Shown: positions 35,196 to 36,917 of the stretch, in pieces
Numbering within the stretch: position 1 is the first letter of the stretch
Layout: the number at the start of each line of letters is the position of its first letter
Assembly: GCA_937889645.1 (NCBI GenBank)
Contig: CALBZE010000091.1
Location: forward strand, 5,672 to 69,671
DNA length: 64,000 nucleotides
DNA from: an uncultured bacterium
GTDB lineage: Bacteria; Gemmatimonadota; Gemmatimonadetes; Longimicrobiales; RSA9
Direction of reading: 5' to 3'
Notes under the pieces: model-generated
Told to the model about the DNA's origin: nothing
What the model saw: the letters and a program-made list of their open reading frames with translations, nothing else
Database searches by the model: none
Program-made: the position numbers and the translations under genes

Positions 35196-36917
35196 ATGGG
35201 TGTGATGGATCGCGAAGCGGCGGCCGCCGGGCTCGAGGAGCAGATCCGGGAGAAGGACCGCGAAATCGCAGAGCTTCGCGCTCGGCTGGCGGAGTGGGAG
35301 GCGGCGTTCCGGCGCACGCCGACCCGTGAGACGAGCTTCACGACGGTCTCGGGGGTGCCCGTCGCCCCGCTGTACACGCCCCTCGACGCGCCGAACGCCG
35401 GCGACTACCTCGAGAAGATCGGCTTCCCCGGCGAGTACCCGTTCACCCGCGGCCCGTACACCACGATGTATCGGACGCGGCTCTGGACGATGCGCCAGTT
35501 CGCCGGCTTCGGCACTGCCGAGGAGACGAACCGCCGATACCACTACCTCCTCGAGCACGGGCAGACGGGCCTCAGCGTCGCCTTCGACTTCCCCACGCTC
35601 ATGGGTTACGACTCCGACCACCCGCGCTCGCTGGGCGAGGTAGGGAAGTGCGGCGTCGCCGTCTCGAGCCTGGCCGACATGGAGACCCTCTTCTCCGGGA
35701 TCCCGCTCGACCAGGTCTCCGTCTCCATGACGATCAACGGTCCGGCGATCATCCTCTTCTGCTTCTACGTCGTCGCGGCGGAGAAGCAGGGCGTATCGCC
35801 GGAGAAGCTGCGCGGCACCGTCCAGAACGACATCCTGAAGGAGTATCAGGCGCAGCACGCCTGGATCTACCCGCCGGAGCCGGCGGTCAAGCTGATCGTC
35901 GACATGTTCGAGTGGTGCTCGAAGCACGCGCCGAAGTACAACCCGATCTCGATCAGCGGCTATCACATCCGCGAGGCGGGTGCGACGGCCGCGCAGGAGC
36001 TGGCCTACACGCTGCGCAACGGCTTCGAATACGTCGAGCGCGGTATCGCGCGCGGCCTGGACGTCGACGACTTCGCGCCGCGCCTCTCCTTCTTCTTCGA
36101 CGTCCACAACGACTTCTTCGAGGAGATCGCCAAGTTCCGCGCCGCGCGCCGCATCTGGGCCAAGCGGATGAAGGAGGTCTACGGCGCGAAGAAGGAGGAG
36201 TCCTGGCGGCTGCGCACTCACGCCCAGACTGCCGGCGTCACGCTCGTCGCGCAGCAGCCGGAGAACAACATCATCCGCGTCGCCTACCAGGCGCTCGCGG
36301 CTGTGCTCGGCGGCACGCAGTCTCTGCACACCAACTCGATGGACGAGACGCTCGCGCTCCCCACCGAGAAGGCCGTGCGCATCGCGCTGCGCACGCAGCA
36401 GATCCTGGCCTATGAGACCGGCGTCGCCAACACGATCGACCCGCTCGCGGGGTCCTACTACGTCGAGGCGCTGACGGACGAGCTCGAGCGCCAGGCCGAG
36501 GCGATCTTCGACGAGGTCGAGCGCCTCGGCGGCGTCGTGCCCGGGATCGAGAAGGGGTACTTCCAGCGCGAGATCGCGCGCAGCGCCGAGCGCCAGCAGC
36601 GCGAGATCGAGTCCGGCGAGAGGATCATCGTCGGCATCAACGCCTTCACCGGCGGCAACGACGACTCCGACATCGAGATCCTCAAGATCGGCGACGACGC
36701 CGAGCGCCGTCAGCGCGAGCGACTGGCCGAGCTGCGCGCGCGCCGCGACGACGCGCGCGTCCGGGCGGCCCTCGCCCGCCTCACCGAAGCGGCTCGCAAC
36801 GACGAGAACGTGATCGAGCCCATGCTCGACTGCGTGCGCGAGTACTGCACCCTTTACGAGATCCGGCACGCGCTCGAGCAGGTGTACGGCGCCTACAAGG
36901 AGCCGGTCTTCTTCTGA
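35196..36917 (+). CDS. B12-dependent acyl-CoA mutase large (substrate-binding) subunit with isobutyryl-CoA mutase-type residues
   Basis: [62 protein letters not shown]; no fused B12 domain. Confidence 0.9.

Follow-up and report, generated by a model that had tools for sequence, protein, structure and literature searches.

The 64,000-nucleotide (nt) stretch of DNA analysed here (the window; contig CALBZE010000091.1 of assembly GCA_937889645.1, positions 5,672 to 69,671 of the forward strand) originates from an uncultured bacterium of the order Longimicrobiales, phylum Gemmatimonadota, and carries at positions 35196-36917 a gene of the methylmalonyl-CoA mutase (MCM) family. The product of this gene is very probably the large, substrate-binding subunit of an isobutyryl-CoA mutase (ICM; EC 5.4.99.13) of the IcmA/IcmB type. 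The enzyme type is already known, and the subfamily found in the class Gemmatimonadetes is a new member of it. A preliminary description of the same DNA had proposed a two-subunit ICM-type mutase rather than an MCM. This proposal is supported by the signature residues of the protein, its sister position to Streptomyces IcmA, the presence of a Tyr/Arg paralogue in the same genome, and the mutual exclusion of the gene and that of the fused mutase IcmF.

The plus-strand open reading frame (ORF) lies in a window with a G+C content of 70% and yields a stop-free translation of 573 amino acids (aa); its start codon fits, since the related proteins measure 570-580 aa. A database search placed the nearest relatives of the product in metagenome-assembled genomes of Longimicrobiales and other Gemmatimonadota. 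The protein matches PF01642 with 765 bits over the entire model (positions 1-512 of 512) and TIGR00641 with 797 bits, and the domain scan revealed no B12-binding domain (PF02310) within it. The catalytic motifs common to MCM, comprising 25 residues of motif sequence and SLHTNSMDE, are intact.

A passage of PMC7238569 that cites Jost et al. 2015 names the Tyr89 and Arg207 sites of MCM as specificity determinants. The corresponding columns were assigned by a PDB search with mutase residues 89-235. Phe102 (codon TTC, 35499-35501, in RQFAGF) aligns to chain index 88 of the Propionibacterium shermanii MCM, i.e. Tyr89, and Gln220 (codon CAG, 35853-35855, in KEYQAQH), situated 118 residues further on, aligns to chain index 206, i.e. 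Arg207. The Y89F mutant 5req_A and the wild-type 1req_A differ precisely in the column of Phe102 (RQFAGF vs RQYAGF). Both residues, their codons and their spacing had been pointed out in the preliminary description and were confirmed on the translation, while their equivalence to the Propionibacterium pair was borne out by the PDB alignment and the mutant comparison. The alanine reported at the position of a diagnostic aspartate of 2-hydroxyisobutyryl-CoA mutase (HCM) was also verified: Ala129 (SVAFD) lies opposite the Asp in STDFD of HcmA, at the HCM Asp117 position. In the alignment with IcmF (4xc6), segment positions 11-112 correspond to chain positions 615-720, and, if no gap is assumed, Phe102 corresponds to chain index 618. 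This index would agree with the published Phe598 of IcmF, provided that the chain has a 20-residue tag.

The exchange of Tyr and Arg, which hold the carboxylate in MCM, for Phe and Gln is explained by the ICM substrate, in which that group is absent. The pattern is not a chance occurrence, as Phe102 is kept in all 120 of the closest database relatives and the motif (A/S)-Q-H-A-W, which includes Gln220, in 117 of them; the same motif was present in 17 of the 20 orthologues read directly from genomes.

The distribution of the gene was surveyed in 121 Gemmatimonadota genomes, 102 of which belong to the class of the window. At least one match to the mutase protein was found in 107 of the 121, and nearly all of these 107 genomes gave two matches: an orthologue with 61-87% identity and a Tyr/Arg paralogue with about 55-60%. 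Within the class, the split Phe/Gln gene occurs in about 93 of the 102 genomes and IcmF in six, and no genome contains both. The class genomes without the orthologue (G061, G079, G010, G067, G084 and G110) are exactly the carriers of IcmF, a protein of about 1150-1190 aa. The IcmF of G079 (locus L069), the single product scanned, scored 1661 bits with the IcmF model NF045497, above the cut-off of 1500. The exclusion (IcmF in 0 of 93 genomes vs 6 of 9) corresponds to p = 6e-8 in a Fisher test that ignores relatedness; the six IcmF genomes represent three families and five genera. The gene order in G110 is MgtE, meaB, IcmF (inverted), small subunit and carboxyltransferase, with AtuA further along, and IcmF thus occupies the icmA slot. 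Second "small subunit" hits in the six genomes, considered at first glance as MetH, in fact stem from the B12 domain within IcmF. No IcmF was found in a second search of plasmids.

IcmF shares the Phe and Gln determinants with the window protein, but combines B12, G-protein and mutase domains in a single chain of about 1150 aa, whereas the window encodes the MeaB chaperone and the small subunit in separate genes. The window mutase scored 377 bits with NF045497, far below the cut-off, and its match to 4xc6 reached 316 bits. The replacement pattern points to functional equivalence of the split Phe/Gln protein and IcmF, and, an assay apart, no other evidence here speaks as strongly for the split protein performing the job of IcmF. 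IcmA and IcmF would present a clean natural case of split and fused forms of one enzyme displacing each other.

The source assembly (3.79 Mb, 166 contigs, rated 100% complete) contains exactly two PF01642 genes. The second one (contig C125, 57707-59341) encodes a 544-aa Tyr/Arg protein (RQYAGF and KEYIARGTY) that shares 59% identity with the product of 35196-36917. It is located directly downstream of genes for a biotin carboxyl carrier protein (BCCP) and a biotin carboxylase, an adjacency that identifies it as the MCM of the propionate route; a canonical propionyl-CoA carboxylase beta subunit is encoded on contig C13. The propionyl-CoA route is thus supplied with a large subunit of its own. 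The protein with Phe/Gln is a diverged paralogue and not the MCM of the organism. Split MCMs of the archaeal/Thermus/Bacillus type share with it the fold, the catalytic motifs and the need for a small subunit and MeaB, but they have Tyr/Arg and belong to a different clade.

An MCM function for 35196-36917 is nevertheless what the database names suggest ("methylmalonyl-CoA mutase family protein" or "N-terminal domain"), and the identity to the Tyr/Arg paralogue as well as the methylmalonyl-CoA epimerase and MeaB genes in the window could be cited in its favour. We regard it as extremely improbable, given that both carboxylate-binding residues (Tyr89 and Arg207) are replaced, that the NCBIfam MCM equivalog NF006944 gives 685 bits, below its cut-off of 876, that a canonical MCM large subunit is encoded elsewhere in this genome and in nearly all related ones, and that the trees group the protein with IcmA. 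The epimerase, present in a single genome copy according to tblastn, belongs to the MCM route; it lies 14 kb from the ICM gene, and the large subunit of MCM is encoded on a different contig. The expectation that automated annotation would miscall the gene held in part: NCBI applies generic family names and JGI the name "methylmalonyl-CoA mutase N-terminal domain", but the specific MCM model stays below its cut-off. The missing Arg also makes an ethylmalonyl-CoA mutase unlikely.

Phylogenetic analysis was based on 150 family representatives (P0122-P0271) taken from a library of 1.8 billion proteins, on references from plasmid records (M. petroleiphilum HcmA, Xaut_5021, Xaut_5043, and Tyr/Arg proteins of Streptomyces, Brevibacillus and others), and on a group of 566-aa Streptomyces proteins of the IcmA type. 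In a FastTree phylogeny of 123 sequences, the clade of the window protein was sister to the Streptomyces group with a support of 0.993, and the wider Phe/Ala/Gln clade, including a Deinococcus plasmid gene, had a support of 0.994. IQ-TREE (LG+F+R5, 54 sequences) recovered the clade of the window protein (characterised by His-Ala after the conserved Gln) with 99.9/100 and its union with the Streptomyces proteins with 93.2/88, while HcmA (Ile/Asp/Gln), Xaut_5043 (Leu and Asn at the first and third positions) and all Tyr/Arg MCMs remained outside. A phylogeny of the kind recommended in the preliminary description, here with MCM, ICM, HCM and pivalyl-CoA mutase (PCM) references, places the protein in the Phe/Ala/Gln clade, from which HCM, PCM and MCM are excluded. 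The full-length substrate domain free of a fused B12 domain, the Phe/Gln columns, the placement in the IcmA group and the separate DxHxxG small subunit are together the features of a split ICM. Streptomyces IcmA/IcmB (S. cinnamonensis type) is likewise split, its large subunit measuring about 570 aa and its B12 subunit about 140 aa, and has Phe/Ala/Gln columns.

Several candidates were discarded as references. Streptomyces plasmid hits H15, H16, H33 and H38 turned out to be Tyr/Arg MCM-like proteins and not IcmA, and P0173, considered as a proxy for IcmF, proved to be a Phe/Gln mutase with a B12 domain attached at its C-terminus. A Phe/Gln split mutase (RMFAGF, KEFIAQKEF) with meaB upstream was observed on a plasmid of Deinococcus sp. 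KNUC1210 (L008, 7974-9590); it is labelled just "methylmalonyl-CoA mutase family protein" and is likely another stand-alone ICM outside Actinomycetota.

Among the 150 representatives and nine references, 76 Tyr/Ala/Arg, 21 Phe/Ala/Gln and four Ile/Asp/Gln signatures were counted. About 40 representatives have other full signatures, e.g. Val/Val/Val, Ile/Val/Leu, Leu/Ile/Gly or Gln/Asp/His, and these constitute a large pool of uncharacterised specificities.

The best match of the window protein among solved structures is HcmA (4r3u, 577 bits), which ranks first for no other reason than that a stand-alone IcmA has never been solved. This match and the many uncharacterised signatures in the family might be taken to indicate a 2-hydroxyisobutyryl-CoA mutase (HCM/RCM type) or some other undescribed specificity, which we consider very improbable. 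HcmA/HcmB (Methylibium/Aquincola) is also split and has Gln at the Arg207 column, but of the HCM residues Ile90, Asp117 and Gln208 only the Gln is shared, Ile and Asp being replaced by Phe and Ala in the window protein, and HcmA branches outside the Phe/Ala/Gln clade. HCM genes form an operon with a dedicated ligase and their own MeaB-like gene; the neighbourhood of 35196-36917 lacks a 2-hydroxyisobutyric acid-CoA ligase, unlike the HCM loci L004 and L005.

The residues that follow the conserved Gln distinguish the window protein from other members of its group. Q-K-E is found in every one of the Streptomyces IcmA-type and other Phe/Gln proteins sampled (Q-K-E-W in Streptomyces IcmA), compared with Q-H-A-W in the clade of the window protein, and Q-K-E is retained in one member of the class (G105) as well as in genomes of other classes. 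Sampled HCMs have Lys after the Gln in all cases and then Glu in three of four, and MCMs have R-G/N-T. Further differences fixed in the His-Ala clade were found at positions 176, 190, 341, 343, 394, 418 and 561. The IcmF proteins of related genomes (L069, L071 and L072) contain MFAGEGG and KEDQAQNT, i.e. Q-N-T, and the occurrence of both Q-K-E and Q-N-T among undisputed ICM types indicates that the two positions after the Gln are variable. Q-H-A-W therefore probably marks a subfamily and does not define specificity. The suggestion that the YQAQHAW variant may shift the substrate found no support: His221 and Ala222 are fixed in the clade, yet an IcmF with Asn and Thr at these positions replaces icmA in six genomes.

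The gene for a MeaB-type chaperone (Table 1) precedes icmA directly, an arrangement that differs from Streptomyces IcmA/IcmB. Its 404-aa ORF begins with a TTG codon overlapping the stop codon of the ABC1 kinase gene; the model matches start near residue 22-37, and the true start may lie further downstream. The Pfam match extends over 332 residues for 269 model positions, reflecting an insertion relative to typical MeaB proteins. MeaB is single-copy in the source genome (tblastn). The B12-binding small subunit is likewise the sole stand-alone subunit of its kind there, the other whole-genome match being a frame of MetH size. Long open frames (454-720 aa) around the small-subunit gene were considered as possible fusions and rejected: GC-rich DNA has produced them by chance upstream of the gene, and all of them end at the small-subunit stop.

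One copy of the small subunit is present in nearly all genomes of the class, and the ratio of two large subunits to one small subunit and one MeaB was found throughout, including the closed genomes G064, G071, G080, G058, G082 and G103. In G061 and G079 the gene order is ABC1-meaB-small subunit-carboxyltransferase-AtuA-enoyl-CoA hydratase; icmA is gone, IcmF is encoded elsewhere, and MeaB has been retained along with the stand-alone small subunit. As the only split large subunit remaining in these two genomes is the Tyr/Arg MCM, the small subunit and MeaB must serve MCM there. By extension, we find it reasonably likely that in the genome of the window both proteins would be shared by the ICM-type and MCM large subunits, unlike in Streptomyces. 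The preliminary description had assigned the mutase its own MeaB; the gene is indeed present upstream, but the genome has no further copy of MeaB or of the small subunit, and both most likely work for MCM as well, so that a chaperone private to ICM is not borne out.

From these comparisons, we infer the substrates of the enzyme and the pairing of its subunits. The 573-aa IcmA-type protein would associate with the 144-aa B12 subunit, with MeaB assisting the loading of adenosylcobalamin (AdoCbl), and the complex would interconvert n-butyryl-CoA and isobutyryl-CoA by a radical 1,2-shift of the thioester group. A minor activity on isovaleryl-/pivalyl-CoA is probable, as a passage of PMC10481361 describes such an activity for IcmF.

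Features of the analysed region are summarized in Table 1.

Table 1. Predicted genes in and around the mutase locus (positions refer to the window; scores are given with model cut-offs where available)
Feature	Position	Strand	Model matches and remarks
MgtE	30772-32265	+	
ABC1 kinase	up to 33941	+	
MeaB-type G-protein chaperone (AdoCbl loading)	33938-35152	+	PF03308 300 bits; TIGR00750 324.9 bits (cut-off 240.75)
Putative icmA-type large (substrate-binding) subunit of isobutyryl-CoA mutase	35196-36917	+	573 aa; PF01642, TIGR00641
CNNM/CorC transporter	37019-38380	+	
S-adenosylmethionine (SAM) methyltransferase	~38430-39300	-	
B12-binding small subunit (IcmB/McmB type)	39414-39848	+	144 aa; PF02310 98 bits; TIGR00640 180 bits; DxHxxG in GLDGHDRG
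Carboxyltransferase, methylcrotonyl-CoA carboxylase beta type	39829-41535	+	PF01039 461 bits
S41 peptidase	41548-43200	-	
TPR protein	43197-44438	-	
AtuA-family protein	44414-45994	+	PF07287 516 bits
Enoyl-CoA hydratase (crotonase family)	46555-47334	+	PF00378 178 bits
ClpB	47633-50368	+	
Methylmalonyl-CoA epimerase	50981-51382	-	TIGR03081 136.7 bits (cut-off 114.95)

Comparison of 27 related loci distinguished two units that we call invariant, meaB-icmA and small subunit-carboxyltransferase-AtuA-enoyl-CoA hydratase. The genes meaB and icmA occur as a pair in 18 of 20 related loci, and the small subunit adjoins the carboxyltransferase gene in all loci examined; in the window, the last 20 nt of the small-subunit gene are also the first 20 nt of the carboxyltransferase gene. 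Many genomes contain all these genes as one contiguous block (meaB-icmA-small subunit-carboxyltransferase-atuA-ech), and in most the small subunit is adjacent to, or a few kb from, meaB-icmA. In some families the units lie far apart, and several genomes have meaB-icmA hundreds of kb from the second unit. In the window, icmA is separated from the small subunit by inserted CorC and methyltransferase genes, and the carboxyltransferase from AtuA by inserted peptidase and TPR genes. A CorC gene (magnesium/cobalt transporter family) between icmA and the small subunit was seen solely in the genome of the window and its closest relative, L014; in L015, CorC adjoins icmA on a locus that does not include the small subunit. 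No Rfam family, including the B12/cobalamin riboswitch, was detected at positions 28000-52000.

The best PDB matches of the carboxyltransferase are the beta subunit of methylcrotonyl-CoA carboxylase (MCC; 3u9r_B, 402 bits) and AccD1 (369 bits), followed by PccB (279 bits). No biotin carboxylase gene was found in the small subunit-carboxyltransferase-AtuA-hydratase unit; acyl-CoA carboxylase genes for biotin carboxylase and BCCP were found solely beside the MCM large subunit on C125, and the other biotin carboxylase match, on C35, is AccC-sized. AtuA occurs in 92 of the 121 genomes, all within the class of the window, and a literature search returned no biochemical function for it. The linkage to carboxyltransferase, AtuA and hydratase genes, which also sets the window apart from Streptomyces IcmA/IcmB, may reflect a neighbourhood for the catabolism of branched-chain acyl-CoAs, with valine degraded via ICM and MCM and leucine via an MCC-like carboxylase and the hydratase; alternatively, it may reflect a more specific pathway.

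Some of these observations, together with certain features of the analysis itself, weigh against a butyryl-/isobutyryl-CoA mutase. The small subunit is always coupled to Liu/Atu-like genes, for which butyryl/isobutyryl chemistry has no need. His221/Ala222 (Lys/Glu in other ICM-type proteins) and positions 176, 190, 341 and 343 are fixed in the clade. The Streptomyces 566-aa group was retrieved with a provisional Streptomyces IcmA query sequence, with only the returned database proteins being used, and this orthologous group serves as the phylogenetic anchor in place of the characterised S. cinnamonensis IcmA. The database proteins are 87-93% identical to this provisional sequence, and JGI or NCBI lists several of them as "isobutyryl-CoA mutase large subunit". 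The provisional sequence was about 57% identical to the window protein and was replaced by the database proteins. Finally, since IcmF also acts on isovaleryl-/pivalyl-CoA, its replacement of icmA cannot separate four-carbon from five-carbon substrates.

In accordance with these points, the mutase could instead be an ICM-family enzyme for branched five-carbon acyl-CoAs (isovaleryl-/pivalyl- or 2-methylbutyryl-/valeryl-CoA) that feeds the MCC-beta-like carboxyltransferase, AtuA and enoyl-CoA hydratase in a Liu/Atu-like route. The invariant second unit, often joined in one block with meaB-icmA, the gene overlap, the likeness of the carboxyltransferase to MCC beta, the clade-fixed changes near active-site motifs and the minor activity of IcmF, which in G110 adjoins the small-subunit and carboxyltransferase genes and AtuA, are all compatible with this proposal, but we judge it unlikely. 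The small subunit would also have to serve MCM, so its linkage to the carboxyltransferase need not concern the Phe/Gln large subunit, and the separation of the two units in several genomes argues in the same direction. At the columns of Tyr89, Arg207 and Tyr243, the PCM pocket has Leu, Asn and Gln, respectively. The window protein has RQFAGF, AQH and SGYHIREAG at these sites, compared with RQLIGLG, FIANHQF and VVGQHMQQAG in Xaut_5043, the sole natural PCM compared, which is also distant in the tree. We take Xaut_5043/5044 to be the PCM characterised by Kitanishi et al. 2015, and Xaut_5043 to be its large subunit. Moreover, the F598A substitution in IcmF, which enlarges the position equivalent to Phe102, reportedly favours pivalyl-CoA, and the window protein retains Phe102. 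A broader proposal appears improbable to us: in it, the meaB-icmA-small subunit-carboxyltransferase-atuA-ech genes would form an undescribed B12-dependent route of branched acyl-CoAs into Liu/Atu-like carboxylation and hydration, butyryl- and isobutyryl-CoA would not be the main substrates of the His-Ala mutase, and the small subunit and MeaB would be time-shared by the ICM-type and MCM large subunits.

Isobutyryl-CoA mutase thus remains the function that we prefer for the product of 35196-36917. A search of the accessible literature found no paper linking Gemmatimonadetes with this enzyme. If confirmed, the service of one B12 subunit and one G-protein chaperone to two mutases would bear on cofactor loading and on the control of subunit pairing. 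The assignment offers a corrected function for a gene that is found in most genomes of the class Gemmatimonadetes and is generically labelled as MCM. Gemmatimonadota, a phylum widespread in soil, make iso-branched lipids, and the MCM label would hide a connection in them between acyl-CoA pools of the straight-chain and the branched-chain (valine) type.

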